From a virus, in IMG/VR virus record IMGVR_UViG_3300037454_000146, positions 1 to 64,000 of that record: DNA of 64,000 bases; one strand, written 5' to 3'. Below the pieces are notes generated by a model, which was not told the DNA's origin, made no database searches, and was given only the letters and a program-made list of their open reading frames with translations. Positions within the stretch are counted from its first letter, which is position 1; every line of letters starts with the position of its first letter. Positions 17,498 to 57,266 of this stretch are shown here, one piece after another. The translations under genes were made by a program, and so were the position numbers.

Positions 17498-17938
17498 TTG
17501 CTGAGAATTAGACCATGTGATTTAAAGACAGCCAATGAGTTTGTAAAGAATTATCACAGGCATCATAAACCGACAGTTGGTCATAAGTTTAGCATATCTT
17601 GTTATGACGACGATAGATTGTGTGGTGTCGCAATATGTGGCAGACCTGTTTCAAGACATCTTGACAATGGACTCATATTAGAGGTAAACAGGCTGTGTAC
17701 AGACGGAACATATAATGCTTGTTCTAAATTATATAGTGCCTGTAAAAGAATTGCAAAAGAGATGGGTTACGACAAGATTATAACCTACATCTTAGAATCT
17801 GAAAACGGTGCGAGTTTAAAAGCAAGCGGATTTATATGTGAAGGTTCGGCGGGGGGGGGCAGTATGGACAGGCAAAAGAAGTGGCAGAGACAATGGCGTT
17901 CCCCAAGAGATGAAAACACGATGGAGTGTTACGTTTAA
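17498..17938 (+). CDS. XF1762-like (GNAT-fold-like) protein; C-terminus possibly frameshifted at a G9 run
   Basis: ANEFVKNYHRHHKPTVGHKFSI...GVAICGRPVSRHLDNGLILEVNRLCTDGTYNACSKLYSA matches my recollection of XF1762-family proteins. G9 run at 17851-17859. Confidence 0.55.
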   Translation: MLRIRPCDLKTANEFVKNYHRHHKPTVGHKFSISCYDDDRLCGVAICGRPVSRHLDNGLILEVNRLCTDGTYNACSKLYSACKRIAKEMGYDKIITYILESENGASLKASGFICEGSAGGGSMDRQKKWQRQWRSPRDENTMECYV

Positions 17939-17977
17939 TAAATAATAAAACGGTTCTTTTAAGAAGGGGGTGAAATA

Positions 17978-18286
17978 ATGTACGAAGGTTATACTTGCCC
18001 TATATGCGGTTATGATGACGTAGGTAGCGAAACTTACCGAGAAGAATTTGGCATTGTTGAAGAACATCTAAGATGTAGTCAGTGCAACTACTACTATGAA
18101 TATGCCTACGGTCATTATGTAGAATATTTTGCAGGGCATGAATTTGCTTGGAGTTATATGACTAAGGGCAATGAATGGGTTAATCTTATGAGAAAGATGA
18201 AACGTGCTCAGTTCATGGCAAGAAGAAATTGGCGTAAAGGATTGAGAGATAAATTCAAAGTGGCTTACGATGATATTGAGCCTTGA
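17978..18286 (+). CDS. zinc-ribbon protein
   Basis: CPICGYDD...CSQCNYYY. GGGGGTGA RBS. Confidence 0.5.
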   Translation: MYEGYTCPICGYDDVGSETYREEFGIVEEHLRCSQCNYYYEYAYGHYVEYFAGHEFAWSYMTKGNEWVNLMRKMKRAQFMARRNWRKGLRDKFKVAYDDIEP

Positions 18287-18312
18287 AACGGTTTTTATTA
18301 AGGAGGATTAAG

Positions 18313-18597
18313 ATGATTAAAGTTTTAAGAGACAATACAAAAGAAACCTATTACACAAAATGTAAGAATTGTAATAGTGAACTTGAATATGAATATTCAG
18401 ATGTTACCACTATAGAACTTTCTATGTCATATCACACTGACAAGAGAATACTCTGCCCTGTTTGTGGTAAAGACACGATGGCTGAACTCACCTCAAAAGA
18501 TGATTATAAAGACAGTCTGTTTTCATTTAAGCAAACTAATCCATTGACAGCAGCTATGAATTGCTGTACACCATTATGGAACTCGCCTAACGAGTAA
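18313..18597 (+). CDS. zinc-ribbon protein
   Basis: ATG 18313 after AAGGAGGA. CKNCNSELEYEY...CPVCGKD. Same architecture as ORF 21397. Confidence 0.5.
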   Translation: MIKVLRDNTKETYYTKCKNCNSELEYEYSDVTTIELSMSYHTDKRILCPVCGKDTMAELTSKDDYKDSLFSFKQTNPLTAAMNCCTPLWNSPNE

Positions 18598-18665
18598 CAT
18601 AGAACTTTACTTTTATGTGGCGACAGAGTAACAAATTAAAGATTCGTTTTAAGTGAGGTGAGTAA

Positions 18666-18917
18666 GTGGGAGTTATTTCTAAAAATATGTTAAATCGTTG
18701 GGAAGAATTTGACTTGCCATCAGAACAAGAACAACAGCCTATTAAGCAAGAATGTTGCTGCGTCGATTTGAACAGTCACAAATCATTCGATGTAATAAAA
18801 ATACTCGAATCATGGCAAGAAAAAATCAAAAGTGAAAATCCTGATTATTCTCAAAAGGAAGTTTCTGCTTATCTTGCAGGAATGATACGAGATATGGGAT
18901 TACAGAATGAACTTTAA
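18666..18917 (+). CDS. hypothetical protein
   Basis: GTG start after GAGGTGAG, 83 aa. Confidence 0.45.
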   Translation: MGVISKNMLNRWEEFDLPSEQEQQPIKQECCCVDLNSHKSFDVIKILESWQEKIKSENPDYSQKEVSAYLAGMIRDMGLQNEL

Positions 18918-18941
18918 ACCTGTGTTTTATGAGGTGAGTAA

Positions 18942-19025
18942 ATGATATTCAAAATAGTTGTTGTTGTGCTATTAATTATGATCAGCCTTCAACTTGATGA
19001 TATTACAAGGAACACAAGAAAATGA
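18942..19025 (+). CDS. small TM peptide (27 aa)
   Basis: MIFKIVVVVLLIMISLQLDDITRNTRK after GAGGTGAG. Below the track cutoff. Confidence 0.3.
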   Translation: MIFKIVVVVLLIMISLQLDDITRNTRK

Positions 19026-19101
19026 TAAATTTCTGCTTTTATGCCATAGAAGAAACATTTCATGGCGAAGTGGCATATGACCGAACAAGGAGAAAAAACA
19101 A

Positions 19102-19611
19102 ATGACTATTATTGAAATTATTGGAGTGACCATTATCGTTATTTGTGGCGTTTGTGCAGCATCGTCATTTTATCTTTCTATAAATTTGTACACATCTGAG
19201 TGTGACAAATATCGACTGAAAGAAGAATATAAAGGTGATGAGGCTGGATTAAAATTAGCTCTTGAAAAGGCTGAGAACAATAATAAAAAATCTGAAAACC
19301 TATGGAGAATTATGGGCGGTTTTATTTTAGCTGCTATTGTATCTTTGATGATAATGATGTTACTTGACAGGGCAGACAAGAGTTACGGCACAGAAGAATC
19401 GTATACAATTAGTGCGACAGTTCTTGGTAAAAGAGCTGAGATATCGGACGATGATACAAGATATTACATATCGCTTTCAAATGGAATTGAGTACAAGGTA
19501 AAAGGTCAGGACTATTCAATACTTGAAAAGGGTTATTCTGTAAATGTTGTATATCATGATGTCACTGGTTGTATAACTGGCGAACATTACAAGTGGAGCG
19601 ACATGGGATAA
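19102..19611 (+). CDS. membrane protein (two TM segments)
   Basis: Hydrophobic stretches IIEIIGVTIIVICGVCAASSFYL and GGFILAAIVSLMIMMLL. AAGGAGA RBS. Confidence 0.55.
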   Translation: MTIIEIIGVTIIVICGVCAASSFYLSINLYTSECDKYRLKEEYKGDEAGLKLALEKAENNNKKSENLWRIMGGFILAAIVSLMIMMLLDRADKSYGTEESYTISATVLGKRAEISDDDTRYYISLSNGIEYKVKGQDYSILEKGYSVNVVYHDVTGCITGEHYKWSDMG

Positions 19612-19620
19612 GGAGGGGGT

Positions 19621-19812
19621 ATGACTGACAAAACTAAGAAAGCCTTTAATAATGCCATTGCAAGTGCAGGAATGGAGGGCTTTGATTTTACAGATGAGCA
19701 GCTTGAAAGCCTTGCTGACCTAATAGAACAGGTGGAAGGTGGCACAATTACTTGGCGAGAAGCCATAGACTCTATCTTGCAGAAGTATAGGAGGAATGAT
19801 GAATGCTTATAA
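19621..19812 (+). CDS. VbhA-like antitoxin (Fic-inhibitory helix protein)
   Basis: NAIASAGMEGFDFTDEQ aligns with VbhA NALASQRLEGLEPDPQ and carries the [ST]xxxE[GN] inhibitory motif (S-AGM-E-G). 63 aa. Confidence 0.65.
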   Translation: MTDKTKKAFNNAIASAGMEGFDFTDEQLESLADLIEQVEGGTITWREAIDSILQKYRRNDECL

Positions 19813-20021
19813 GAGCTGAGAAGCCTATAACAAAAGAGCAGTACGCAAGATCACAGGTGCGCGGCGGTTATATCGACCCTGTTGATATGGGTATCATATT
19901 CAATGACGCAGAGAGATATGGTTACGGCATTTACGATGCAATAGGGTACGCTCGATATAATGACGAGACAAAAGAAACCGCGTATATCGTTTCGTATACA
20001 ACGAGTACGTGCTGCGATTAA
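19803..20021 (+). CDS. hypothetical protein
   Basis: 72-aa ORF overlapping the upstream stop, AGGAGGA RBS. No Fic motif. Confidence 0.45.
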   Translation: MLIRAEKPITKEQYARSQVRGGYIDPVDMGIIFNDAERYGYGIYDAIGYARYNDETKETAYIVSYTTSTCCD

Positions 20022-20031
20022 GGAGGATATT

Positions 20032-20295
20032 ATGGAACATATTGAAAAGTATATTGTTGAGAGACTGCGCCAGCTTGAAGCCGAAACAAAAGAACAGGCA
20101 GAAAAGATTGATAAACTTAATGACAAAATTGCTGAATTTGAGGAGATGCGTGAACTGCTACGCAAGAACACTACAGTAAAGTCTTTTTCAGACGGCAGAT
20201 GTTATATTGACTATTTATATAGTTCACGTCAAAACGAGATAAATATGCTCATTGACTTTTATGGCATAACAGCGGACTCGGAGGATGACGAATGA
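20032..20295 (+). CDS. hypothetical coiled-coil protein
   Basis: ATG 20032 (MEHIEKY) after AAGGAGGA. Confidence 0.5.
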   Translation: MEHIEKYIVERLRQLEAETKEQAEKIDKLNDKIAEFEEMRELLRKNTTVKSFSDGRCYIDYLYSSRQNEINMLIDFYGITADSEDDE

Positions 20296-21410
20296 ACGTT
20301 TATGCAGATAATGCGGCGTTTAAGCCATTAATCCCAGAAGTCAAGAAGTTTATACATGACTTCATTGAAACCGATTTCCGCAATCCGTCAGCTATTTACG
20401 GCGGCGGGCGAGCTACACGGCGGCTAATAGAACAGGCAAGAGAACAAGTCGCAAAGGCGATAGGTGCGGACGCAGAAGAAATCTACTTTACAAGCGGTGC
20501 AAGTGAAGCAATTAACTGGTTCTGCCATGCAGATAGACCAATATACACCACAACGATTGAGCACAAAGCCGCACTGAGAAACGCCAATAACTTCATACCC
20601 GTAAGCGATACAGGTAGAATTGATTTAGATGTTTTTCTGCGCCATTGTCCGAGATACGGCAAGGTTGTGGTAGGTTGGGTTAATAACGAAATAGGAGTTA
20701 TTCAGCCTATAAAAGAAATAGTTGACATATGTCACAAAAAGCACAGCAACATCTTGATTGATGCAACCCAAGCCATAGGACATATCCCAATAGACGTACA
20801 CGAACTCGGCGTTGACTTCCTTATAGGCTCTTTCGGCAAACTCGGCGGACTTACTGGTAGCGGCTTCCTCTATATGAGAAAGGGGATATGCCTTGAGCCG
20901 ATGATAAAGGGCGGCGGTCAGGAGCGTGGGCTTAGAGCTTCGACAGAAAACATCTTGGGAATCCTTGCGGGAGCTATGGCGATAAGTATAGCAACACAAG
21001 ATATTGATATAAAAATGTCTCAAATCTGCAAAAAGCGAGACAAGATTATATTAGAACTGCTTCAAATTCCCAAAAGCCATCTGAATGGCGATTTGGATAA
21101 CAGGGTTTGTGGCAATATCAATATAGCTTTCGAGGGTATAGAAGCAGAGAGTTTGGTATTACAACTTGACTTAAGGGGCGTACAGGTGTCCGCTGGATCG
21201 GCTTGCAACTCTGCAAGTATTGAGCCATCTCACGTATTAAAGGCGATAGGTCTGAGCGATGAGCTTGCAAGGGCTTCAATTCGCATAACGATAGATGAAA
21301 ACATTACAGACGAGCAAATTGATTATATGGTAAATACCATTAAGGATTGTGTGGCAAAGATGAGGCAGTCATCACCATTATGGAAGGAGATAACTAATGA
21401 GGATAATTGA
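20292..21410 (+). CDS. cysteine desulfurase (NifS/IscS-like class V aminotransferase)
   Basis: Class V fold length (372 aa), PLP-lysine region GSFGKLGG, catalytic loop VSAGSACNS. Confidence 0.75.
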   Translation: MNVYADNAAFKPLIPEVKKFIHDFIETDFRNPSAIYGGGRATRRLIEQAREQVAKAIGADAEEIYFTSGASEAINWFCHADRPIYTTTIEHKAALRNANNFIPVSDTGRIDLDVFLRHCPRYGKVVVGWVNNEIGVIQPIKEIVDICHKKHSNILIDATQAIGHIPIDVHELGVDFLIGSFGKLGGLTGSGFLYMRKGICLEPMIKGGGQERGLRASTENILGILAGAMAISIATQDIDIKMSQICKKRDKIILELLQIPKSHLNGDLDNRVCGNINIAFEGIEAESLVLQLDLRGVQVSAGSACNSASIEPSHVLKAIGLSDELARASIRITIDENITDEQIDYMVNTIKDCVAKMRQSSPLWKEITNEDN

Positions 21411-30436: not shown

Positions 30437-30628
30437 ATGACAAAATCATTAACTGTTAAAGAAGTGAGCAAAATACTTTGTATAGGATTGAATCAGGCTT
30501 ATGCATTGATGAAAAGCAAAGGTTTTCCGTCTTATCGTATCAACAATAAATATTTCGTCACCGAAGAAAACTTATGTAAATGGCGCGACAATATTAAAGG
30601 TCGCCAAATTCTTCTGAAGGCTGATTGA
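30437..30628 (+). CDS. xis: excisionase-type helix-turn-helix DNA-binding protein
   Basis: LTVKEVSKILCIGLNQAYALMKSKGFPSYRINNKYFV matches the excisionase-family HTH pattern. Adjacent and convergent to int. Confidence 0.6.
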   Translation: MTKSLTVKEVSKILCIGLNQAYALMKSKGFPSYRINNKYFVTEENLCKWRDNIKGRQILLKAD

Positions 30629-31769
30629 GCAATGATATTGCTTTAACCTTCTGTTCTTCGATTATATGAATATAGATATTGTAGGTAATGCTTACATCGC
30701 TATGCCCCAAGATTTCCGATACAGTCTTGGGGTCAACGCCACGCTTAAAGAGCATACTGGCGAACGTATGCCTTAACGAATGGACTCCCGCTGGTTTTAT
30801 GCCAGCGGTTTCTGTTATTTTACGAAACGCACGGTCGAGATTGCGAGGGGATATGAATTTTCCATTCTTGGTTGTGGCGACGTATACTTCGCTATGACGA
30901 TGCTCCCAAAGATATTTGAGGGCGGCTACCGCGTTGTCTGCCAGAGGAATTAGCCTATTGCCCGACTTTGTTTTGGGAGACTGCTCAATCAATTTATACA
31001 CATTTTTTGAATTTTTATCGCGATTGCGGACTTGTTTAAGATTTCCAGATACTCTTAGTGTGCCAGCGTCGAAGTTGATGTTTTCCCATTTAAGGGCGAG
31101 TAATTCACCCACTCTCATGCCCGTATAAAGCAATAAGATGATATACCAACCATTGCTATATTTATATTCGCCATTCTTGTACTTAAATAGCGCGTGCTTT
31201 TTTATCAATTCAATTTCTTCTGCGTTATAAAAAACAATATCTGACAATTCCTTCTTGATTTGTTTGGGGAGAGATATACGGACTGCGGGATTCTTTTTAA
31301 TTTCACCGCGCTCATAAGCCAGTGTGAGGCAAGAGTCTATCGCGTTGTACGCTTTCTTAATTGTGGAATACGCATAGCCCTTATTGGTTAATGTGTTGAC
31401 TAATTCCTGTATGTCGCTCGGAGATAAACTGTGAATCTGAATATATCCAATAAAGGGGAATATCTGATACTTACAAGTTGCCTCAAGCCTGTCGTAAGAA
31501 GAAGGTTTAAGCTCCGTGCGCTTAATATCTTCGAGCCAACGGGTCATATAGGATTCAACCGTAGTCTTTTGGACTTCCTCATATTCGTGACGAATAAGCT
31601 CTTTTTGAAATTCTTTTAACTTTGTTTTGACTTCTCGTTCCGTCTTACCGTAAATAGCTTTGACCTTACGCTTGCCTTGAGCATTATAGCCCATAGTGAC
31701 ACGCGCTGTCCATTTACCGTCCTTGCGTTGCGAGATACTTCCCATGCCTTTTTCGCGACGTTCTGCCAT
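30594..31769 (-). CDS. int: tyrosine integrase
   Basis: N-terminal SAM-like domain (GSISQRKDGKWTARV), catalytic region TGMRVGELLAL ... HSLRHTFASML ... LGHSDVSITYNIYIH. ATG 31769 follows GGAGGTG. Confidence 0.9.
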   Translation of the reverse strand: MAERREKGMGSISQRKDGKWTARVTMGYNAQGKRKVKAIYGKTEREVKTKLKEFQKELIRHEYEEVQKTTVESYMTRWLEDIKRTELKPSSYDRLEATCKYQIFPFIGYIQIHSLSPSDIQELVNTLTNKGYAYSTIKKAYNAIDSCLTLAYERGEIKKNPAVRISLPKQIKKELSDIVFYNAEEIELIKKHALFKYKNGEYKYSNGWYIILLLYTGMRVGELLALKWENINFDAGTLRVSGNLKQVRNRDKNSKNVYKLIEQSPKTKSGNRLIPLADNAVAALKYLWEHRHSEVYVATTKNGKFISPRNLDRAFRKITETAGIKPAGVHSLRHTFASMLFKRGVDPKTVSEILGHSDVSITYNIYIHIIEEQKVKAISLLNQPSEEFGDL

Positions 31770-31817
31770 ACTAACACCTCCTTGATTATAGTATAGCATA
31801 CGGAGGCTAAAAAGTCA

Positions 31818-33727: not shown

Positions 33728-33900
33728 CGAGAATTGAAACCTTCACAGGTATTTCTTACTGCTTCAACGTATATGCTTTTGTGGTTATAAAACACACTAC
33801 TCACAAGTTCTTGTACACTCCACAGTCGTAAATTCCCGAAATAGCCTTCGGTACATACTTATATTTTGCTTTCATTATGCAATTGTATAAGTTATTGCAT
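33728..33900 (-). ncRNA. expected position of the TnpB omega/reRNA scaffold (3' end of tnpB to the right end)
   Basis: By analogy with characterised TnpB loci. Local hairpins seen: CCGAA-GGCTAT-TTCGG and ACAAG-AA-CTTGT. Not verified. Confidence 0.3.
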
Positions 33901-35035
33901 CTCTAAGATTCAGACTGGCATTAAAATCCCTATCTGCTACATACCCACATTCACAGTGATAAATTCGGTCTGATAGTTGCAGCTTTTTCTTGATATGACC
34001 ACAACAATGACACGTTTTAGATGAGGGATACCATCTATCTACAATTCTCAATTCAATACCATTTTCAAAGCATTTAAATGCTAATTTAGTTCTAAACTGA
34101 TAAAACTTTTGAGATGCTACGGCTTTTGCAATATGTTTGTTTTTCATCATCCCTCTTACATTCAAATCTTCAATAGCAATATAAGATGGTTTGGTTTTCA
34201 CTATCTCGGCTATTACTTTATTAATGTAATCGGTGCGGATGTTATTTAACTTATTATAAAGCCTTTGTACTTTTAGCTTTTGTTTTTGTATATTTTTTTG
34301 AGTAGCCCCTCCTTTCTTATTTTTATCATATTTACGAGAAAGACACCGTTGTTCTCTACGCAGACGTCTTTCAATCTTTTTGATTTTTTCTGACTTGTTA
34401 ATATTTGCGTATAATTGACCATTTGACAGAATCGCGAAATCCTTTAAACCCAGATCAATTCCAACACCTTCGTTGTTGCAAACTGTAGGTTCTATAGAAG
34501 GAATATCTACGAGGACAGACACATAATATCTACCAGCTTCAACAGATATAGAGCCGCTTTTAATAATTAGTCCGCTTCGAGTTGTTGGAATATATCCTTT
34601 CTCTTTAACGCGCACCCATCCTAATGTTGGAATATTGATTCTATGTCTTTCACATCTACAATCTTTTGAATTATTCTTCACAAAATACATTGTGACATTA
34701 GATCTCCCTTTCTTCTTAAAACGAGGATAACCACTTCGATTTTTAAAAAACCTCATAAAAGCTGCATACCCATTTTCAATAGATTTTTTAACTGCTTTTG
34801 AATATACTTCTTTAATCCATTTTTTATCAGAATTGTTTGGGATATACTCATTGTTCAACCATACACTAAATTCCTTGCCCGTAACAAAGTCTTTGTTTTT
34901 AAGATATAGTTCTTTATTGTAAGCAAGATAAAAATTATAAATAAATCTACAGGTATTAATCGTTTTGTCTATTTTATTCTTTTGCTCTAATGTAGGATTG
35001 ATTTCCGTCTTAAAACTCTTAAATATTTTCATCAT
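33875..35035 (-). CDS. tnpB: TnpB (OrfB) RNA-guided endonuclease-family transposase accessory protein
   Basis: N-terminal FKTEINPTLEQKNKIDKTINTCRFIYN, RuvC-like GIDLGLKDFA, AIEDLNV, and Zn ribbon SSKTCHCCGH...YHCECGYVADRDFNASLNL. Confidence 0.85.
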   Translation of the reverse strand: MMKIFKSFKTEINPTLEQKNKIDKTINTCRFIYNFYLAYNKELYLKNKDFVTGKEFSVWLNNEYIPNNSDKKWIKEVYSKAVKKSIENGYAAFMRFFKNRSGYPRFKKKGRSNVTMYFVKNNSKDCRCERHRINIPTLGWVRVKEKGYIPTTRSGLIIKSGSISVEAGRYYVSVLVDIPSIEPTVCNNEGVGIDLGLKDFAILSNGQLYANINKSEKIKKIERRLRREQRCLSRKYDKNKKGGATQKNIQKQKLKVQRLYNKLNNIRTDYINKVIAEIVKTKPSYIAIEDLNVRGMMKNKHIAKAVASQKFYQFRTKLAFKCFENGIELRIVDRWYPSSKTCHCCGHIKKKLQLSDRIYHCECGYVADRDFNASLNLRDAITYTIA

Positions 35036-46762: not shown

Positions 46763-49700
46763 TTATCTGCGCGGCTTGAATACCTGACTTTCGGTCAGAA
46801 CCGTCTGCATATAGGATTCCATTTGTCTCGCGAATTGCTCCGCGTTCTGTACGTTGGGGAGATTGATTACTGTGCCGTTAAATGTGACCGCGTTTGCCGT
46901 GTCGGATTTCTTGCCCAAATTCTGTGCGATTCGCATATTGCCCGTAATAGCAGAAGGTGTTAGCGCGGGAGAGTTGTGTAGCGCATTATAGAGCTTTGCC
47001 GCATCGGTCGAATTGAGCACGAGCTCGGGGCGTTGCTTTGTTCCGTGGAGCATTGCAAGTCCCGTATAAGTATTCACTCCGCCGTCTGCGTATGCGCCTA
47101 TTTTTCGTAAATATGCGTCCCAAGCCGAATTAACATCTTGATTATACTTAGACAAATCTTCTTTAACGATAGCTCTCCTAATACCATATTCGTCTACCTC
47201 TAACCTATCAAGTCTCTTTTCAATATCGTCTATGCGGTTGTCATAAGAAGAATAGTCCATACCCGCAACAGACTCATTGAGTTCATCTTGGGCTTGAGTT
47301 AATTTGCTTATGATAGTCGAATACTTTTTATAAAACGAATCAAGATTTCGAGCCATATCGCCCTCGTCACTACCCATGCTTAATGAAATATTGTAGGCTT
47401 CTTTATAAAAATCTTGAACCGAGTCTTTGGCTTCTTTCGCAACATTTTGCACCTTAGATTTGTATTCTTGCCATTTCTTAATTTCTTTATCAACGGCTGC
47501 AATCTGTTTGTTTGAGGCTTCGATACTCTTATTTACAGCCACCATTTCTACATTAGAAACACGACTGAGCTCGTCGGCATACTTATCATATTCCGTTTCG
47601 TAATCATTAAGAATATCTAAGTCCTGCTCGGCAATCTTATCACGCCAATCAGCACCAAGTATCTGCTCGGCAAGTCGCTCATCTTCTGCTTTTTGCCTTT
47701 TTTGAGTAACACCTTCCCATTGTTTCAGATATTCCTCTAAGACCTTAATATCTTGATTAGCTTGCGCCTTATCTACTTCCCGTTGAGCCTTATCAATATC
47801 TGACTTCTTAGCCTCATACTGCCAACCGCCCGCTTCTGTATAGGTACGAACTTTCTTGTTTTTAGCATTTTCGAGATTTGCAAGTTTCTCCGCGAGGTCA
47901 AGAGCTTCTTCACGCTCCTCGTTCTGCTCCTTAATTGCTTCAATCTGTTCCTTGATAGCGTTTTGAACGGTATTTGCAACCTTTTCGTAATTCTCAGTAA
48001 TTTCTTCGAGAGCGTCTTTCTGTTCCTGCAAGACCGTGAGTTGCTCCTCCATTGCTTCTTTAGAGGCTTCAATAGCAGATTTTTCAGCTTCATAACCCTC
48101 TATAACGGAATCAATTTTGTATTCCTGTGCCTTTAAAAGAGTGTCCGCTTCTTCATTGAGTTCTTTAGTAAGATTGTTAAGCGCTTGCTGACGGTCTACT
48201 GTGTCACCAAGACTTCCGTTGTAATATTGCAACACAACATTATTGCGATCCCAATCCTCTCCAATCTCAACAACTTTTTGTTCTGCCGTCTCTAACTGAT
48301 TCTGCAATTCAACGTATTGATAATAGTTAGGATTGTGAGAGTTTTTACGCATTTCAGACCACGTGTTCATTTCAGCCCGAATTGAAGCTACTTCTTCTTG
48401 CGCGGCTTTTTTAGCATTAAGCAACTCAATTTGTTTGAGCTCTATAGATTGAATTTGTTTTTGAATATAAGCATCTTTCAGGTCAATAAGTTGTTGCTCT
48501 GTGACTTTAAATTGTCCACTAATACTATCAAAACTTGCAGGACTTAAATATTTAGTGCCTAATTCGTCATCCAACTTATACAAGTCCATAAATGCATCTC
48601 TGTCAATACCGTTGCCATTAGCAAGCGTCTGAAGTGCTGACTTCATAGCGTCGATATTCTTTAACGTCGTTTTCTTTAATTCGTCATAGCTTTCATACCA
48701 AGCCTCAGACATACTTTCGATTGCTGTAATTGCACCAGAAGCTCCTGTTTCAAAGGAAGAAAACAATGAATCTACGTCTTGTTGCAAAGAAGGATAGTCT
48801 GCCCCAATTTTATTTAGCTCTTGCCTAATCTCATCAAGGCTTTGCGCCGCTTGTCTCTTTTTTATAGTGGTATTATCACCCGCAATAACGTGATTTAATT
48901 CTTTGGCTTTATCAATCAAAGAATTGTAATTATCTAATACGTCTTGTGGAACTTCAAACGAATTATAATATTTGGTTTGACGCTCCATTTGGTCGGCATC
49001 GGCTTTATCAACTTCATATTTTGCTCTTGCCGCTACGTATTGCGCCATTAAGCCCTTATAAATATCTTCGTCATATCCGTCGATTTCTTTATAAGTGTCG
49101 GCTATTTTTTTCCAGCCCTCAACTTGCTCCTCTAAAGTACCCATAACTGCAATGTCAGCTTCTTTGCCCCACATATCAGTAGCTATATGGTCAAAAGCAA
49201 CCCCTGTGTCATGGAACAGCTTTAACATATTAGACAAGTCGGTTGTTGTATCGGCTTTTATCTTTGCACGATAAAATTGAGTTGAATCAGAATCGGCAAT
49301 TCTTGCATTTTTGTCAGTACCCTCAAGCGATTCAACGGCTTGTTTGTACCTCTTTTGATTTTCGGTATCGAAAATGTAATCTTCAACCTTTTCTTTTTTT
49401 AACTGTCTTATCTTTTCAATTTCTTCCGATAATTTGCCATTAACCAAATCAATACCCTCGGCTTCTTCGCCATATTTGGATATTAATTCGCCTTGCATTG
49501 AAGATAATTCCTTTTGGATTCCAACTAAATCATCTGTAGAAGTATAAAGTTGAAGGTATCTATCCATTATTGAATCTAACGAATTGATTTCCTCGCCCAT
49601 AGCCTCTATAGATTGATGACCAGAATCGCGCAACTCTTTTGCGGCTTCAGCAGCTTTTTCTTCTGCGTGATACCACTCGTCAATTTGTTTAACAACTAAT

Positions 49701-49996
49701 GATAAAGCATAACTTAACCCAAATGATATAGCCGCATTAAGAGCTGCGGTTGCAACTTGTAATGCAATAGTCTTAGCACGAGCAACCACGAGGGATTTGA
49801 CATACCCGCCCATTGTTGCTTCTGCACCATTAAGCCCTGATAGATAATTTTTTAGTCCGACATTCGAGCCGCTAATCTCATCATCAAAAGCCTCTTGGAC
49901 ATATTTAGCTTTATTAAGAGAATAGTTATAATCGTCTAAACTCGTTGTTATCTTCTTTATATCATTGCCAAATTTACTAATGTCAGAACCGAATAT
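46763..49996 (-). CDS. tail tape measure protein, exon 2 (1077 codons + stop)
   Basis: Long coiled-coil protein with hydrophobic segment AALNAAISFGLSYALSLVV. No RBS before the tracked ATG 49999. Joined in frame to exon 1 by the proposed splice. Confidence 0.7.
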   Translation of the reverse strand: MFGSDISKFGNDIKKITTSLDDYNYSLNKAKYVQEAFDDEISGSNVGLKNYLSGLNGAEATMGGYVKSLVVARAKTIALQVATAALNAAISFGLSYALSLVVKQIDEWYHAEEKAAEAAKELRDSGHQSIEAMGEEINSLDSIMDRYLQLYTSTDDLVGIQKELSSMQGELISKYGEEAEGIDLVNGKLSEEIEKIRQLKKEKVEDYIFDTENQKRYKQAVESLEGTDKNARIADSDSTQFYRAKIKADTTTDLSNMLKLFHDTGVAFDHIATDMWGKEADIAVMGTLEEQVEGWKKIADTYKEIDGYDEDIYKGLMAQYVAARAKYEVDKADADQMERQTKYYNSFEVPQDVLDNYNSLIDKAKELNHVIAGDNTTIKKRQAAQSLDEIRQELNKIGADYPSLQQDVDSLFSSFETGASGAITAIESMSEAWYESYDELKKTTLKNIDAMKSALQTLANGNGIDRDAFMDLYKLDDELGTKYLSPASFDSISGQFKVTEQQLIDLKDAYIQKQIQSIELKQIELLNAKKAAQEEVASIRAEMNTWSEMRKNSHNPNYYQYVELQNQLETAEQKVVEIGEDWDRNNVVLQYYNGSLGDTVDRQQALNNLTKELNEEADTLLKAQEYKIDSVIEGYEAEKSAIEASKEAMEEQLTVLQEQKDALEEITENYEKVANTVQNAIKEQIEAIKEQNEEREEALDLAEKLANLENAKNKKVRTYTEAGGWQYEAKKSDIDKAQREVDKAQANQDIKVLEEYLKQWEGVTQKRQKAEDERLAEQILGADWRDKIAEQDLDILNDYETEYDKYADELSRVSNVEMVAVNKSIEASNKQIAAVDKEIKKWQEYKSKVQNVAKEAKDSVQDFYKEAYNISLSMGSDEGDMARNLDSFYKKYSTIISKLTQAQDELNESVAGMDYSSYDNRIDDIEKRLDRLEVDEYGIRRAIVKEDLSKYNQDVNSAWDAYLRKIGAYADGGVNTYTGLAMLHGTKQRPELVLNSTDAAKLYNALHNSPALTPSAITGNMRIAQNLGKKSDTANAVTFNGTVINLPNVQNAEQFARQMESYMQTVLTESQVFKPRR

Positions 49997-50033
49997 CATA
50001 TATTAAAAATCGTTTTTTTATTTGATTTTTAAC

Positions 50034-50062
50034 TTGACAAATTAGAAAATATTTGTTATAAT
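50034..50062 (+). promoter_or_regulatory. sigma-A type promoter P4 (TTGACA-17-TGtTATAAT)
   Basis: Same family as P1-P3. Lies inside the intron, antisense to it. Confidence 0.7.
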
Positions 50063-50087
50063 ATAATAGAAGAAAGGGGTTGATGTT

Positions 50088-50603
50088 ATGAAAAATAATC
50101 TTATCAACGAAATTAAAAAATATTCAATCGCAGATTTAAAGATTATATTAGACACTCAACAAGATTTATATACCATTGACGAGATGAACATTATTAGAGA
50201 TTATTATGAAAAGTGTAAAAATGAATACATATCTAAGCACACACCAAAGCTAATCCCTTGCCCTAAATGTGACGCGCAAAATGATTTTAATTCTACAACT
50301 TGCACATATTGTGGTCAACCTATAAACAACAAACCTTATTTAGATAGAATATGCAACGAAATGCTTGGGATTATAACCGCAGAAGATGTGAAAGACGACA
50401 ACGATGATTATAATGGCAAATCCCCCTCGTTCTTATTCCAGTATATAATCAGCTTCATAATACCTCTTATTGGTTTAATTGTAGGTGGCGTGTTTATTGC
50501 AAGCGATGACGAAGATAAGAACGCGTCGGGCAAGATTTGTATTGCGATTAGCATTATATCTATCATTGTAAGCACCACTCTATATGTTTTAATATCAAAA
50601 TAA
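50088..50603 (+). CDS. zinc-ribbon + two-TM membrane protein (moron)
   Basis: CPKCDAQNDF..CTYCGQP, then FLFQYIISFIIPLIGLIVGGVFIA and ICIAISIISIIVSTTLYVLI. Has its own promoter. Confidence 0.6.
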   Translation: MKNNLINEIKKYSIADLKIILDTQQDLYTIDEMNIIRDYYEKCKNEYISKHTPKLIPCPKCDAQNDFNSTTCTYCGQPINNKPYLDRICNEMLGIITAEDVKDDNDDYNGKSPSFLFQYIISFIIPLIGLIVGGVFIASDDEDKNASGKICIAISIISIIVSTTLYVLISK

Positions 50604-50607
50604 CCTC

Positions 50608-50636
50608 TTGACAAAATCTCTTGCTTGTGCTATAAT
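50608..50636 (+). promoter_or_regulatory. sigma-A type promoter P5 (TTGACA-17-TGcTATAAT)
   Basis: Same family. Drives the repeat RNA + toxin unit. Confidence 0.7.
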
Positions 50637-50640
50637 AACC

Positions 50641-50755
50641 TTGCGGAGCAATCCGCACCGTGTCGTGTCGCTCCCGATTAGCGTCTAATAAATCATCGGA
50701 TATGAATGTTTGTCGCTCTCTGATATGCGACTAATAAATCGTCAGACTCAAATCT
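50641..50755 (+). ncRNA. putative type III antitoxin RNA: 5' GNRA hairpin + 2 (plus a partial) x 45-nt repeats
   Basis: Units 50666-50710 and 50711-50755 both start TGTCGCTC and share CTAATAAATC. The internal stem covaries (CCGAT/ATCGG vs TCTGA/TCAGA). Confidence 0.6.
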
Positions 50756-50781
50756 AAAGCCTTGCCTAATCGCAGGGCTTT
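50756..50781 (+). terminator. attenuator-type hairpin between repeats and toxin gene
   Basis: AAGCCTTGC / GCAGGGCTT stem (one G.U) with a 6-nt CTAATC loop. Weak T-tract, as expected for a leaky terminator. Confidence 0.5.
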
Positions 50782-50798
50782 ACTATTAGGAGTATTTT

Positions 50799-51251
50799 AT
50801 GATTACAGGTCACTTCTATTTTCTCAAGCCAGAATATACACAACAATTTGCAAATCCAAAGTTTATGAATAACAATGAACATAACCGCCCGTATTTCTGT
50901 GCCTTTACAGAGGATAGCCACATCTTTTGGCTTGTGCCGATTTCCTCTAAAGTGGATAAATTTGAACGTATTTACAACAATAAAGTTGGTCGTTATGGTA
51001 AGTGTGACACCATTGATTTCTGCCACATCCTCGGCAGAAAGAAAGCGGTTTTAATCCAGAATATGTGTCCTGTAACACAAGAGTTTATTTTGAATGAGTA
51101 TAACGATCCGCATGGTAAGCCAGTACAACTTTGTGAGAAAGTGCGCAAGCGCATTACTCATAAAGCAAAGAAAGTCCTCGTTCTTCACCGCAAAGGCGTT
51201 GACCTGTTGTTTGGGGACGTTCTAAAAATTAAAAAAGAATTATCAAAATAG
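50799..51251 (+). CDS. type III toxin, ToxN/AbiQ-family endoribonuclease (putative)
   Basis: FYFLKPEYTQQF...NRPYFCAF...IFWLVPISSKVDKF...AVLIQNMCPV parallels the ToxN/AbiQ features FY...Y...L..FD, RPY, YFAPLSSPK, N.NNMIPV. 150 aa. Preceded by repeats and a hairpin. Confidence 0.65.
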   Translation: MITGHFYFLKPEYTQQFANPKFMNNNEHNRPYFCAFTEDSHIFWLVPISSKVDKFERIYNNKVGRYGKCDTIDFCHILGRKKAVLIQNMCPVTQEFILNEYNDPHGKPVQLCEKVRKRITHKAKKVLVLHRKGVDLLFGDVLKIKKELSK

Positions 51252-51308
51252 TTGAATATCGTACCCCTAATTCCATTCACTGAGACTGAATTATGAGGTG
51301 ATGAAAAA

Positions 51309-51413
51309 ATGAGTTTTGTTTATAAACCCGTACACGTTAGAGCATATTATCGTATACGTTACGGCGCACTGGAATATGTGCGTGAACACTATCGCTCATA
51401 TCCCATAAGATAA
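51309..51413 (+). CDS. possible 34-aa basic peptide
   Basis: MSFVYKPVHVRAYYRIRYGALEYVREHYRSYPIR after GAGGTGA. Bracketed by a 17-bp long-range inverted repeat. Confidence 0.3.
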   Translation: MSFVYKPVHVRAYYRIRYGALEYVREHYRSYPIR

Positions 51414-51848
51414 TGGGAGTTCACCAGTAATTTGGTCAGGATTCAAACTCTTTAATCCAGTGGACGGAACTAAGGGTACGATTTTTCTGCTTTCTCCACG
51501 CTTGCAGTAGCGCAAAACAATAGGGGAGAATCCTCTTTGAAACCAACGCATTTCTGCGCCTATGGACTATATCTTTGTGGTGTTACGCCACAGCTTCTTT
51601 TAGTCTCTGAACCTTCCCTTGCGGGCTTGGCTGCTGATTAACCGTTAAACAACCTTTAGCTTTTGAGCATGGGTTATCCGCATAATTTTTTCTGCTTTCG
51701 CAACATTCACGCTTGCAACCAGTGGTTGCTACGTTGTAGTCTACGCGGCTTTGGGTACTTCCAGCAATTAAAAAGCTCATTTGTGAGGGACGTATCACCC
51801 CGCAACAATTTCGTAACAATGCGAGGTTAGGCATATTCGGTTAGGTTT

Positions 51849-54362
51849 ACCTATCCCTTTGAAGCTGCCGACAGCGGCGAGCCCTGTAAGTAAAGTCGGG
51901 AGTGTCCCGAACTTGTCGATGATTTTTGTCAGTATCTCTAAAAACTCTTTGGCGGTGTCTACCACGCCCTTAATAAAGTCGCTACCTACGACCGTCTGAG
52001 CGAGGTCTTGGTATGCCGCCTTTAAGCTGTCAATAGAATACTGAATCGACTTCGCGTATTCTTCTTGCTCGCGACGTGCAGAGCCCGCAGAACCCTCGGC
52101 GGTCTTGTAAACCTTTTCAAGCAACTCGCCGTTTTCGAGGATTGCCGCACCTATATTCGACTGACGTTTGCCAAATAGCTGCTCAAGAACTGAGCTTCGC
52201 GAGAGGTCATCAAGTTGACCCCACACCTTAGAGATTTCGAGAAGAATCTGATATGTTGATTTATATGTTGTGTCGTCAAGCTGAATGTCTACGCCTGTAA
52301 GCGCAAGCATCTGCTGTCTGAGCTTCGATATATTTTCAGCCGCACCCTCTGCATCCTCACCAATCTGTTCAAGCTCTGTCTTGGTTGAACGGAGACGAAG
52401 TGATACGGTTTTGATGCCCTGTCCGACAGTGGTCGGGTCTTGGGCGACAGTGTTTGCCGTGGTGATAAGCGCTATACTTTCGCTCAGAGTGTTATTTCCA
52501 GCCGCTAACGCGGAAGCAGAGCGTTTGAGAGCCTCACCTATACCACCAGAAGATATTGCGAAGTTATTGCCGACTTCGTTAAATTTGTCTACAATTTCTA
52601 TCGAGTTCTGCGCCTCTATATTAAAGGCTTTCATCGTAGACACTAAATCTTCTGCCGCTTGTGTTTCAGTTATGCCGTCGCCGACATTCTGATAAAGTAT
52701 CGCAACCTTACCGAGCTCCTCCGCGTCGGGCAAAGATTCACCCAGTCGTGCAAAGGTGCTTGTGGCGTTGATTACGTCGGTTATGCTCGCACCGAGCTCT
52801 TTGGCGGTATTGCCCGCAGACTTCTGAAATTTTCTGAAATCTTCTTCGGTCGCTTCAGTAACCTTGCGAAGTTCAACCATTGCCGTGTCAAGCGCCGTTA
52901 CCTCGTTTACCATATCTCTAATCTGCCTCTTGACAAAATTAAAGACCATATTCGCGGTAATGTAGCTCGACATTAGTTTGAATGAATTTAAGAATTTACC
53001 CCAAGCACTTTCACCTTTGAGTCCTGCGGCTTCAGCCTCTTTACCAAAGATGCGGAACTCCTCGCCAAGATGTTTAACTTCACTCGCGCTCAAATCCGCG
53101 CCTTTCGCCATACGAGATGTCAAGTCCGCCCACTTGGAGGCGAAAGTTGTGCCGTCAGACATTTGCTTGGTAGAATCTATGGCTCTCTTATTAGCAGAAG
53201 CATACGCTTGCATATCTGCTGAGAGTTTCTTAATCTTATTAGATAAAGAAGTTTCTCGACTAAGAGCCTTTTCTTCCTTTTGAGCCGCCTTTAAACCATT
53301 GGTAATATCTTGAATGGCTTGGCTTACTTCTCCATATTTCTTACTCCATTCTAAGCCACGACCAGATTCACTTTCAATCCGCTGCAACTCTACGAGATTT
53401 TTACTTGCATTTGCAAGATTGTCACCCAAAGACGATTTCGCGGACTCATCTGATAGAGCATCTATATCTTTTCTTAACGCATTAAGCGTATTATCAAAAT
53501 TTTTAGCTTTGTTAATTGCGTTATCAAATATATTAAAGGAACTTCCAGTCGATTTTAGCGACGTTCCGATATTAGCCGCAGCCGTCTTGAGATTATCAAG
53601 TGCCTTCTGTGCGGATTCCACAGAGCCAACGCCAGACTCTAAATCAATAATGGCGTTACGAGCTGTGGTCAGCGGCTCAATTAAACCACTTTCGATTGAT
53701 TTGTGGCTTGCCTCGAAATTAGCAAGCTCTTTACTTAGTCTTGCTAAATCTTGCTGTATTTTGCCAACGCCCTTGTCAGAATAAGAACCACCAATATACT
53801 CAAACTTTTGACCAGTAGAATCAAGCAAGAAATTAAGTTCTCTAACCTCGCCAGAAGCAGCCTGTATTCTCGCAATTATCTTATTTATACTATCCGCCGA
53901 CTCTTGATCGTTATATTTGCCTGTAACGGTAACAGTACCCAATGATGATAGGCGACTTTGTATTGTAGCCATTGTACGCTCGGCGTTGATTATCCCGTCT
54001 GCATTTGTCGCAACCTTAAACGGCTCAACAAACCTACTATCTAAATCCGCAAGCGTTTTCTTTAAAGTGAGAACTTTGTTTGTTACAGTTTCGACACTCT
54101 TAGCAACATTCTCGATGTTTTGCGCCGATTGTCCAGTACCAGCCTGTATTTCTATTTTGGGAATATCTATTTTCAGTTTTTTAGATATTTCGCTAACTTG
54201 ATTTTGCAGAGTAGCCAAACTGTTTGTGTCGAGACTACAAGCTATTGATAATGCTTTGTTGGCATCCAATCGCTTTTTAACTTCTTCTAAATCTTTTTCA
54301 ATTGTACTGACGGTCTTGGGTATGTCCAAACTCGCCACTATTTCAATTCTGTTATCGTCCAT
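51849..54362 (-). CDS. tail tape measure protein, exon 1 (838 codons)
   Basis: TP901-type TMP core FAISSGGIGEALKRSASALAAGNNTLSESIALITTANTVAQDPTTVGQGIKTVSLRLR. The tracked ORF runs 18 codons into the intron before a stop. Confidence 0.75.
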
Positions 54363-54379: not shown

Positions 54380-54868
54380 TTAATACCAGTCAGATATATC
54401 TACATCCCATGAAACTGTTACGCCCCAACGGTTGCTTGCATTGAATTTTTGCACTCCTTTGCTAATATAATCATATCCGTCAAAACGTCTAAATCTATCT
54501 TCTTCGCCAGTATAACCATGCCAACACCAACCGTTTAGCATAAGCACATTAACTGGACTTCTATGGTCTTTGTTAAAGTTCCACGCCCACACATTGTTGC
54601 TAAATTTGAGGGACAACTTAATACGGTTGTCCTTTATTCTTGCCTGTATGAAATCTTCGGCGTATAGCGCAGTCCGCAGGTTTGCACCATCAGGTCTGCG
54701 CTTATAATAACTTGGGCTGTAACTGTCATACATGAAGTCAATCTCGTCTTGTATACAGTCATAAAGATAATCCACAGCTTCTTTGAGATTTTGCTCTACC
54801 GTTTTACCATTAGCAAGTTTTGCCTTTTTAATAACTATGCGTTTAAGCTGTTCTGCAATAGAAGCCAT
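54380..54868 (-). CDS. hypothetical protein (position of a tail chaperone)
   Basis: 162-aa ORF with its own GAGGAG RBS just upstream of the TMP. Confidence 0.45.
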   Translation of the reverse strand: MASIAEQLKRIVIKKAKLANGKTVEQNLKEAVDYLYDCIQDEIDFMYDSYSPSYYKRRPDGANLRTALYAEDFIQARIKDNRIKLSLKFSNNVWAWNFNKDHRSPVNVLMLNGWCWHGYTGEEDRFRRFDGYDYISKGVQKFNASNRWGVTVSWDVDISDWY

Positions 54869-54880: not shown

Positions 54881-55426
54881 TCACTTCTTTTTAGTTTTCT
54901 TTACGCTTTGTTCTACAACAGCCTCTACAAACTCCTGCTTGTCTACCTTGTCGAGCTTTTCAAGCACTTCCTTAATATCGGCAAGATTCTGTGTGTTATC
55001 CGTATTAATTATTGCCGATAAGTCAGCACAAAGCTTGTCAAATGAGGTCTGCCTTGTTGCTATGATATAGTCAATCTGCCTGTCAATCGCAGACTCCACT
55101 TCGCCCCAAACAGGCAACTTCACAACGTCGGCTTCAATCTGCGAATACCAGTTGCCGCCCTGCGTTGTCTTGAATATCTCGTTTACATCAGCATCTTCAG
55201 GCTCAATGTCGGTCATGTACTTGATGATAGAGTAGCGACGAGCTATCTCGCGATTTTCTGCGTGATATTCACCGTCCACGAATGAGGACTGCGCTACAGT
55301 CTGCACGATTGACGCAAATGTGTCTACGTCAAGATAGGTCTTGATTGTGACAGGTGCGCTATTAATGCGCTTGGTTGTGTTCTTGAGGGCAAAGTTCTTG
55401 CCGATAACGTCTGTAAGTTTACTCAT
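54881..55426 (-). CDS. hypothetical protein (position of a tail chaperone)
   Basis: 181-aa acidic ORF upstream of the TMP. Confidence 0.45.
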   Translation of the reverse strand: MSKLTDVIGKNFALKNTTKRINSAPVTIKTYLDVDTFASIVQTVAQSSFVDGEYHAENREIARRYSIIKYMTDIEPEDADVNEIFKTTQGGNWYSQIEADVVKLPVWGEVESAIDRQIDYIIATRQTSFDKLCADLSAIINTDNTQNLADIKEVLEKLDKVDKQEFVEAVVEQSVKKTKKK

Positions 55427-56075: not shown

Positions 56076-57167
56076 TTATTCTGCGTATTTCCAGATGCAA
56101 TTGGCATATATTTCTTTCTTATTCTGACAACATAGTGACACATAATAAGAATTATATCCATTTTGTTTTATTTCTGAGAGCGATGCATATTGATTTAATA
56201 AAACATTATTCATATCATATTGCTCATATTTAATAGCGTTCTGTTGCGATTGCAATTCTTGATAATATAAACGGTCATTCTCCAAATTTTCGGTCGATTC
56301 ATTTTCGTATCTCCACACATAACCAAAAGCAGTATCAACCATTCTCCTACAACAAGACGAAATCAGCGATCTGTTTGTATAACCAGTTTTATCTTCAATT
56401 TCTCTAATTGAATTAAAACTACAAATTAGATTCATACCCATATCGTATTGATTAATTTTTAATCTTTGAGCCTTTTCATTAGCATAATCCAAGCGTTTTT
56501 GTAACAACTCATCAGAATAATCTTCCTCTTTAATCCATATAAATCCTTTATAAGAACGCTTAATACCACTTGCTACCGCTGACACACAGCTATGAATATA
56601 GCCATCTTGTTCAGCCTCTGTCAATGAATTGTATTTATGAAGTATTTCTCCACTATCTTTATCTATTTTATATATAGGACGAATACAACGTTCTTTATTT
56701 CTTTCAGCAATTCCCGTATTATCTTTTGTATAATCAGTTCTTTTCTTTCGAGTGCCAGAAGCCCAAGATTCTTTTTGAGCTTTTCTCATATTATTACAAG
56801 CATCAGCAGGAATTGGAACTCCCAAATGAGCCATTGATTGCCTAAGTCGTGTTTCCTCAGTAATTTCTTTATTTAAATTTCCGCCTTTTTCAATATTAAA
56901 TCCTCTTTTAAGATTTGTAGAATCGTAAAAAGCAATTAATTCAATTTCTTTTGTTTCAGCTTCTTCTTTTGATAAATTATCATACAATATCTCCGAAACT
57001 ATACAATCCCATCCGTTTTTTAATATGAATCTGAAGAAGTGAATATTGTCTTTATACCCTCGACCTCTATCAAACCTTCTTTTCGGGTTTTTCTGACAAG
57101 TGACTCCGATATATACTCGACCATCTGGGACAGTGTGTTTATACACTTTATATTTCTTTTCTTCCAT
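56076..57167 (-). CDS. GIY-YIG homing endonuclease with NUMOD/IENR1-type DNA-binding repeats
   Basis: KVYKHTVPDGRVYIGVT...R...GY...EAETKEIELI...N...GG (GIY-YIG core), ETRLRQSMAHLG (NUMOD3-like), and three YxSxxEaxxxGY...V......K..Y....W repeats. Confidence 0.8.
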   Translation of the reverse strand: MEEKKYKVYKHTVPDGRVYIGVTCQKNPKRRFDRGRGYKDNIHFFRFILKNGWDCIVSEILYDNLSKEEAETKEIELIAFYDSTNLKRGFNIEKGGNLNKEITEETRLRQSMAHLGVPIPADACNNMRKAQKESWASGTRKKRTDYTKDNTGIAERNKERCIRPIYKIDKDSGEILHKYNSLTEAEQDGYIHSCVSAVASGIKRSYKGFIWIKEEDYSDELLQKRLDYANEKAQRLKINQYDMGMNLICSFNSIREIEDKTGYTNRSLISSCCRRMVDTAFGYVWRYENESTENLENDRLYYQELQSQQNAIKYEQYDMNNVLLNQYASLSEIKQNGYNSYYVSLCCQNKKEIYANCIWKYAE

Positions 57168-57232: not shown

Positions 57233-57266
57233 ATTATATTATACCACTAATTTTATGCTCTGTCAA
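57233..57266 (-). promoter_or_regulatory. sigma-A type promoter P6 (TTGACA-17-TGgTATAAT) on the minus strand
   Basis: The reverse complement reads CCCCTTGACAGAGCATAAAATTAGTGGTATAATATAA. Same family as P1-P5. Upstream of the GIY-YIG gene. Confidence 0.7.

Follow-up and report, generated by a model that had tools for sequence, protein, structure and literature searches.

Prophage morons carry their own promoter and terminator, vary among relatives, often provide defense or exclusion genes, and normally lie between genes. For type III toxin-antitoxin (TA) systems of the CptIN family, the activities shown so far are toxicity, rescue and plasmid stabilization. Loci of this family have repeats of 40–48 nt in 1.9–3.4 copies and toxins of ~149 aa (Blower et al. 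2012, PMC3401426), and in the Eubacterium rectale toxin (CptN_Er) Ser51-Ser52 and Tyr104 are active-site residues (Rao et al. 2015, PMC4627078). Phage-borne type III systems have been reported for toxIN and tenpIN, and a 2025 survey states that reports of further ones were lacking (PMC12283969). Group I introns, in turn, are known in prophage tape-measure protein (TMP) genes of the Bacillus cereus group, as described in the survey by Tourasse and Kolstø (2008, PMC2504315), and IStrons such as CdISt1 of C. difficile consist of a 5' group I ribozyme, which renders their insertion phenotypically silent, and a kilobase-scale 3' module with a distant 3' splice site (PMC3984707, PMC4227781). We analyzed a 64,000-nt stretch of viral DNA (positions 1 to 64,000 of IMG/VR record IMGVR_UViG_3300037454_000146), which as a whole is called the window, and in which a model-made annotation, hereafter the original prediction, had placed at positions 50608–51251 a type III TA module of the ToxIN/AbiQ type, nested antisense inside a TMP intron. 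L001 to L005 and similarly numbered loci are the cptIN-bearing loci used for comparison.

The locus is best explained as a whole as a functional TA operon of the CptIN family, a reading to which we give a probability of roughly 0.78. As judged from the DNA, all determinants that a working CptIN locus and a splicing-competent intron would need are present. Every feature listed in the original prediction (promoter, 5' hairpin, repeats, terminator hairpin, ribosome-binding site and 150-aa open reading frame, or ORF) was found in its place by direct reading, and the canonical type III layout was borne out. Transcription of the plus strand would start at ~50643, downstream of a host-type promoter (50608–50636) that reads TTGACA-17-TATAAT with an extended -10 TG and scores 12/12 in a consensus scan. 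It is one of six perfect TTGACA-N14-TGN-TATAAT promoters in the window, versus 0.04 expected, and a promoter is kept at the cptIN position in L001–L005. The leader hairpin (50642–50657; 6 bp, GNRA-type, -9.4 kcal/mol, z -3.7) covaries among relatives, reading GCGGAGCAATCCGC, GTGGATAAAACCAC, GCGGGTTAGCCCGC or TAGGGAAACCTA.

The leader is followed by the CptI antitoxin array (50661–50756), composed of a partial TGTCG copy (50661–50665), unit 1 (50666–50710) and unit 2 (50711–50755/6). Between antitoxin and toxin lies an attenuating terminator hairpin (50756–50781; 11 bp, -16 kcal/mol, z -3.8), the counterpart of which was found family-wide; the U tract that follows it, UUUACUAUU, is weak. An AGGAG ribosome-binding site (50788–50792) is located 6 nt 5' of the ATG at 50799, where cptN (50799–51251), predicted from profile, structure and conservation evidence to encode an endoribonuclease toxin of 150 aa, begins. 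A single 5' promoter and a Rho-independent terminator between repeats and toxin, as expected for members of the CptIN family, are thus in place. The transcript could end at a terminator-like hairpin at 51575–51593 on the plus strand, which was picked up by the consensus scan only and lies inside the antisense of the ribozyme core. We compared the locus with 69 viral (IMG/VR) and 80 genomic loci encoding CptN relatives; the identical layout is present 5' of nearly all of the ~150 CptN homologues fetched, a recurrence that takes the locus beyond chance.

The family label of the original prediction had to be replaced. Against PF13958 (ToxN) the 150-aa protein scored 20.5 bits, below the gathering score of 25 bits, and the PADLOC match to AbiQ was marginal (E=3.5e-4, residues 6–98 only). 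Similarity to a type III toxin was nevertheless clear, since the protein matched NCBIfam NF047359 (type III toxin-antitoxin system CptIN family toxin) over the full profile (1–150 of 150; 167.8 bits versus a cut-off of 90, E=1.4e-49), and CptIN is the correct family. In sequence it also matched CptN from E. rectale (PDB 4RMO_A) with E=7e-21. An AlphaFold 2 (AF2) model built from 36 homologues reached a predicted local distance difference test (pLDDT) value of 91 and a predicted template modeling (pTM) score of 0.85, and 4RMO_A was ranked first for it by Foldseek, with template modeling (TM) scores of 0.90/0.87 and a root-mean-square deviation of 2.2 Å. Further matches were AbiQ (4GLK, TM 0.75), ToxN_Bt (4ATO, TM 0.55) and MazF/Kid toxins, in keeping with a CptN/ToxN (Kid-like) fold of the model.

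Residues Y7, R30, W44, P47, S50, K54, K62, L85, Q87, N88, P91 and Y101 are invariant in the family alignment of the same 36 homologues, and S49 is conserved in at least 90% of them. The aligned positions in CptN_Er are S51-S52 for S49-S50, Y104 for Y101 and R30 for R30. The alignment thus recovers the RNase active site, a Ser-Ser/Thr-Arg triad with a Tyr stacking on the scissile A, in which Arg30 as the putative triad arginine is our own assignment. On the profile matches and the structural model, the product of ORF 50799–51251 is identified as a CptN toxin.

The antitoxin units of 45 and 46 nt, together with the 5-nt partial copy, form a tandem array of ~2.1 copies, and in repeat length, copy number and toxin size the window cptIN is typical of its family. 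Tandem Repeats Finder reported no repeat over 50500–50900, the two copies being too few and too different from each other, and a general repeat search recovered a core of 25 nt that recurs after 46 nt. Of 146 homologous loci, nearly all carry a tandem repeat of ~46 nt, ~150 nt 5' of the start codon; the family consensus of this repeat is TGTCGCTACTCGATATGCGACTAAnAAAAGGTCGAGTTCAAATGTT, with a hairpin before it and a terminator after it.

Base pairing was counted on a sequence-only alignment of 101 distinct units (S1, columns 2–6/18–22; S2, columns 9–14/35–40). The 11 pairs of an H-type pseudoknot were formed in 97% of cells, and 10 of the 11 pairs showed compensatory changes. Double changes were seen in 161 cells versus 38±4 in shuffles, none of 500 shuffles reached the observed value, and controls with slid columns were paired in 20–49% of cells. 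Both window units fit an H-type pseudoknot with a long A-rich loop: S1 is GUCGC/GCG(U/A)C, S2 is CCGAU/AUCGG in unit 1 and UCUGAU/GUCAGA in unit 2, and the A-rich 9-nt loop between the helices, UAAUAAAUC, is the counterpart of the L2 A-minor-twist loop in CptI_Er (PMC4627078). The internal stem that had been singled out as changing its sequence and keeping its pairing (CCGAT/ATCGG versus TCTGA/TCAGA) is real and is helix S2, the changes from one repeat to the other being compensatory. The second helix, S1 (GTCGC/GCGAC), had been missed; it also covaries among close relatives, with GUCGC/GCGAC versus ACCGC/GCGGU in L002 and L003. The repeats are both conserved and covarying in relatives, two properties whose absence would have told against the original prediction.

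A group I intron of 1852 nt interrupts the TMP gene (49997–51848, minus strand), with its core at the 5' end and a 1.55-kb 3' extension that holds the cargo. Rfam model RF00028 matched in full (model positions 1–253) at 51544–51830 on the minus strand, with 60.7 bits versus a gathering threshold of 50. This core accounts for no more than 287 nt and ends before cptIN is reached, so that membership of cptIN in the intron had to be demonstrated; comparison with L001, in which the arrangement is the same, provided the demonstration. We identified P1, P10 and the terminal G by inspection and by alignment of variants. In the region of the 5' splice site (51828–51854, minus strand), the end of exon 1, UAGGU (51853–51849), pairs with GCCUA (51832–51828) to form P1, with a U·G wobble at the splice site, and the guide segment CCGAAUAU (51840–51833) stands directly 5' of GCCUA. 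At the 3' splice site (49989–49997, minus strand) the intron ends with the terminal G at 49997 and exon 2 starts with AUAUUCGG (49996–49989), which pairs with the guide segment at 8 of 8 positions to form P10. All three elements are identical in three variants (window, L001 and L160) despite diverged exons. A 16-nt segment just upstream of the Rfam match, TAACCGAATATGCCTA, is likewise identical in the three variants; run-on ORFs read through it in different frames, which shows it to be non-coding.

Exon 1 of the TMP gene comprises 838 codons (51849–54362, minus strand, from the ORF list) and exon 2 comprises 1077 codons and a stop (46763–49996, minus strand, from the ORF list and comparison with L002). 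Ligation at the predicted junction, AAAGGGATAGGT/ATATTCGGTTCT, restores the frame, and the predicted spliced TMP of 1915 aa has no internal stop and is colinear across the junction (FKGIG/IFG) with the uninterrupted TMP of L002. A conserved core (P3–P9), P1, P10 and the terminal G, and a restored frame are thus found together. The placement of the module inside a TMP group I intron, on the opposite strand, was upheld, and its borders were corrected to 51849/51848 and 49997/49996. An earlier choice of splice sites, with the first Rfam hairpin as P1 (51824, terminal G 49990), was dropped on account of the conserved upstream P1 and guide segment seen in L001; that hairpin is P2. The ORF list and profile searches revealed no homing endonuclease gene (HEG) among the intron ORFs. 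A search of IMG/VR for an intron-less allele with the back-translated peptide FKG(I/V)GIFG returned three matches, none of which is a TMP, and among GenBank phages nothing matched the region, CptN, the TMP junction peptide or the Zn-ribbon ORF of the intron, whether as DNA or as protein.

cptIN was found antisense at the same intron site in two further metagenomic variants, L001 (an IMG/VR contig) and L160, the latter recovered by a pattern search for the P1/guide segment in metagenomes. The L160 intron has 1040 nt, ends with ...AAAAAG/ATATTCGG and carries cptIN alone, its -35 box being located ~16 nt from the 3' splice site. No ATG is present at exon 2 of L160, and exon 2 is therefore not an independently translated gene. 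The ratio of nonsynonymous to synonymous substitution (dN/dS) of cptN is 0.02–0.03 among the three intron-borne copies (0.025 for window versus L001, 0.027 for window versus L160), with a proportion of synonymous differences (pS) of up to 0.5. By this measure cptN is under strong purifying selection, and the low ratio at such pS values indicates that the arrangement is old. Identity of cptIN is 96% between window and L001 and 87% between window and L160; that of the ribozyme core is 66% between window and L001 and 96% between L001 and L160. The exons are 58–76% identical, exon 2 only 58–64% in all pairs. These mosaic identities imply different histories for core and cargo, and since both are far better conserved than the host gene, the composite appears to have moved laterally and recombined.

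The cassette has moved by itself as well. In L002 and L003 it is inserted between homologues of window genes 54380–54868 and 54881–55426, and in L004 and L005 it occupies a third place, beside a RuvC-like gene; in all four it is antisense to the late genes. Both flanks are on the opposite strand in only 3 of 46 IMG/VR cptIN loci. No cptIN within an intron was detected in ~150 other loci by a scan for the motif AAGATATAGTC, in which up to 1 mismatch was allowed and matches were mostly due to chance, and by Rfam on 8 candidate loci. The flagellin introns of L105 (Tuberibacillus calidus, 2793–12572) were considered as a second case and rejected as coincidence, since other genes separate them from cptIN. 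Other insertions were noted in the relatives. L003 has a group I intron (4879–5200, minus strand, 59.6 bits) at the equivalent of window positions 57823/57831, where the window has none, and TMP exon 1 of L001 is interrupted by an insertion of 1.29 kb (3036–4328) that contains an ORF of 309 aa, probably another intron with an endonuclease.

By analogy with CptIN_Er and ToxIN, most transcripts would stop at the hairpin between repeats and toxin, leaving the antitoxin RNA in excess. Read-through would yield CptN, which would cut the repeat RNA and become locked with it in an inactive RNA-protein complex. Upon a halt of transcription or degradation of RNA, CptI would decay and free CptN would cleave cellular and phage RNA; superinfecting phage or loss of the element are possible triggers. 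The intron, for its part, would spare an essential late gene any damage from the insertion. Expression of the module from the prophage is probable, because its promoter appears constitutive and does not have the spacer motif of the phage's other consensus promoters.

As to the biological role, we lean, at somewhat under even odds, towards superinfection defense by abortive infection. Addiction or stabilization of the prophage or of the intron comes behind it as a possibility, and what remains is shared by both roles together or some other one. Abortive infection is what type III systems usually provide, and the general statement of the original prediction, that type III loci act as abortive-infection systems, holds for ToxIN, TenpIN and AbiQ; of cptIN, the two loci tested in E. 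coli gave no phage resistance (PMC3401426, PMC4627078). There is a slim chance that the TA is the functional partner of the endonuclease-less intron, either as an addiction module for the composite or through an antisense switch made of excised intron. In the first version the TA may allow intron and cargo to be maintained as a composite and to pass among divergent tape-measure alleles; in the second, the intron RNA of 1.85 kb, once excised, may serve as a splicing-dependent switch, its sequence being exactly antisense to CptI and cptN, and unleash or silence the RNase late in the phage's own lytic cycle. If this were true, intron and TA would represent a new class of composite mobile element, comparable to intron plus HEG and to intron plus insertion sequence (IStron).

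Several observations weigh against a functional CptIN operon in a splicing intron with a role in defense. In E. coli, the two cptIN loci tested gave an efficiency of plating of ~1 with six coliphages and stabilized plasmids only (PMC3401426, PMC4627078). In the toxin, Asp81 and Ser85, which specify adenine in CptN_Er, are not conserved according to the 4RMO alignment. Units 1 and 2 of the antitoxin are only ~72% identical, with one indel, and are therefore unusually diverged, and a U·U mismatch is present in S1 of unit 1. The CAAAT linker, which brackets each unit in 69 of 93 distinct cptI loci, stands only after unit 2 in the clade of the window (L001–L003, L075 and L076 as well); the junction between units reads UGAAU in this clade, and no CAAAT-type motif precedes unit 1. 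CptI processing may hence differ from the paradigm, and its product in this clade may be a tandem RNA or one that is extended at its 5' end. Analogy with known systems pointed to no CptN cleavage site in the repeats. As for the intron, potential long-range pairing between the segments after P9 and before the 3' splice site was not better than in shuffles (window and L001), and a helix that brings the distant 3' splice site to the core could not be shown.

The competing explanation that survives best, which we consider possible at well below even odds, overlaps with the preferred one and differs from it in the selected function alone. cptIN would be a selfish-retention cargo that keeps and spreads the HEG-less intron composite by addiction, cells or genomes that lose the intron or the prophage being poisoned by CptN once the short-lived CptI has decayed, so that intron and TA would form a single selfish unit. 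The absence of a HEG from the intron fits this view, as does the fact that cptIN is the sole cargo common to all three intron variants, with nothing else in L160, and CptIN_Er indeed stabilizes plasmids without phage abortion in E. coli (PMC4627078). Identities of 87–96% in cptIN and of 96% in one pair of cores, versus 58–76% in the exons, suggest lateral spread, but the TMP exons may simply be fast-evolving. In a mixed infection, moreover, toxin and antitoxin are shared in one cytoplasm and intron-plus and intron-minus genomes would be indistinguishable; the cassette stands outside introns in L002–L005, and the free-standing HNH endonuclease encoded at 56079–57167 could provide mobility without any TA.

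Antisense coupling, the idea of the original prediction, holds that late transcription of the intron and transcription of cptIN regulate each other. Convergent transcription might silence the toxin, excised intron RNA, with its anti-CptI sequence, might titrate CptI, or plus-strand read-through might enter the core and inhibit splicing. The antisense orientation is common to all three intron variants and otherwise rare (the 3 of 46 IMG/VR loci with both flanks opposed), and the plus-strand transcript meets no good terminator before the ribozyme core, the sole terminator-like site, at 51575–51593, being inside the core antisense. This orientation is, however, expected for any gene that is expressed independently of the intron RNA and not translated from it, and L002–L005, which have no intron around the cassette, carry it antisense to late genes as well. 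Within the complex, CptI is folded as a compact pseudoknot that an antisense RNA is unlikely to reach. As the computed results lend it no support, we treat coupling as speculation and as improbable.

It is very unlikely that the gene is not spliced at all, in which case TMP function would come from two polypeptides of 855 and 1078 aa, the ribozyme would be a relic and the plus-strand genes would be merely intergenic. Two ORFs are indeed called and the second opens with an ATG at 49999, but no Shine-Dalgarno sequence precedes this ATG and L160 has AAG in its place. L001 reads the final 17 codons of the 855-aa ORF in another frame, which marks them as non-coding; the Rfam core is full-length and above its gathering threshold, P1, P10 and the terminal G are kept, and the exons would join in frame to give a product colinear with the L002 TMP. 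Least credible of all is a decaying, non-functional cptIN passenger, which the diverged repeats, degenerate CAAAT linkers, U·U mismatch in S1 of unit 1 and weak terminator U tract could indicate, but which is at odds with an ORF intact in all copies, dN/dS values of 0.02–0.08 with pS up to 0.5 between intron-borne copies, compensatory changes between the two repeats and a promoter of perfect consensus.

Besides cptIN, the intron carries a plus-strand gene (50034–50603) with a perfect promoter (50034–50062) and an ORF (50088–50603) for a 171-aa protein with a Zn ribbon at residues 56–79 and two C-terminal hydrophobic helices. No relative of this protein was found in PHROG or in GenBank phages. 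L160 lacks this gene and L001 has an unrelated 90-aa gene instead; the 171-aa protein may be an exclusion protein. A homing endonuclease was considered for this ORF and rejected, the PADLOC 'HEase' match (E=0.015) covering the Zn ribbon only. Downstream of cptN, a nested insert of 231 nt (51255–51485, plus strand) is bounded by 28-nt inverted repeats (51255–51282 and 51458–51485) and contains a 34-aa ORF (51309–51413) that matches phrog_21154, of unknown function, with E=2.6e-10. The insert is present in the window, L001 and L002, is absent at that spot from L003 and L160, and resembles a miniature mobile element lodged within the cassette.

The suggestion that the phage is temperate is plausible, given the tyrosine integrase encoded at 30597–31799. 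This gene belongs to a plus-strand arm that also encodes a DnaB/primase fusion, DNA polymerase III alpha and NrdD, and the minus-strand arm contains lysis and structural genes. The perfect promoters at 4669, 11778 and 21839 (plus strand) and 57238 (minus strand) have the spacer motif ...AAGTTAGTG in common, which may be an operator or a phage-specific element; the two intron promoters do not have it, which would fit constitutive, moron-like expression. A free-standing HNH homing endonuclease gene (56079–57167, minus strand; phrog_314 and phrog_20162) lies in the late region with a perfect promoter at 57238–57266, and is a candidate trans-acting mobilizer for the endonuclease-less intron. The region 33756–35035 contains a gene for an IS605-type TnpB (33878–35035, minus strand; OrfB_IS605 and Cas12f1-like TNB domains) with a RAGATH-18 RNA (73 bits) directly downstream, and copies of RAGATH-18 were also seen in the cptIN-bearing viral loci L012, L016 and L032. 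In the early arm (11894–21410, plus strand), genes for an RNA ligase, a protein with a 3'-phosphoadenosine 5'-phosphosulfate (PAPS)-reductase domain and a class-V aminotransferase/cysteine-desulfurase-like protein may form a DNA/RNA modification or repair set.

With 69 IMG/VR loci, versus none listed for the family in the literature, cptIN is now documented on phages. The peripheral region of a self-splicing intron can evidently be a safe harbor for promoter-driven accessory or defense genes inside an essential phage gene, and annotation pipelines will miss such cargo because the gene looks 'split' and the cargo looks intergenic. The three natural variants, one with the TA only and two with different additions to it, make it possible to test whether a TA replaces the homing endonuclease as the selfish partner of an intron, and the locus offers a way to test the role of CptIN in its native Firmicute and phage setting.

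Within an incomplete coverage of the literature, no paper was found in which a group I intron of a phage carries a TA, or any antisense gene with its own promoter, as cargo, in agreement with the original prediction, which knew of no described example; nor was a description found of the combination of CptIN, a tape-measure group I intron and a prophage moron. The components of this combination are familiar. With the CptIN systems of Coprococcus catus and E. rectale (PMC3401426, PMC4627078, PDB 4RMO) the locus shares operon layout, toxin fold, active-site residues and a pseudoknot with a 9-nt A-rich loop. It differs from them in its repeats, which are reported to be 'usually nearly identical' in cptI (PMC12283969) and are ~72% identical here, in the CAAAT linker, conserved family-wide, which it has only after unit 2, and in its location on a phage and inside an intron, whereas all 33 loci known in 2012 were chromosomal. 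ToxIN and AbiQ resemble it in type III class, general fold and logic, and belong to a different family; ToxI repeats have 34–36 nt and form 3:3 triangular complexes, and an abortive-infection phenotype has been shown for ToxIN and AbiQ, not for CptIN.

The introns of the Bacillus cereus group (PMC2504315) are likewise group I introns that interrupt the TMP gene of a Firmicute phage. A keyword search of that survey turned up no term for an opposite orientation and, in the passages it covered, no TA or antisense gene as intron cargo. The window intron stands apart by its 1.55-kb 3' extension, its promoter-equipped antisense genes and its lack of a homing endonuclease. IStrons are similar in architecture, with a module embedded in the 3' end, but their cargo is an IS200/IS605 transposase/TnpB that serves mobility, whereas that of the window intron is an opposite-strand TA operon with variable small genes under their own promoters; the ORFs of the intron encode CptN, the Zn-ribbon membrane protein and the 34-aa protein, and the window TnpB (33878–35035) lies outside it. 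Like a moron, finally, the module is an autonomous transcription unit in the late region, found at three different sites among related phages; unlike one, it stands within a gene, a position made tolerable by the intron.

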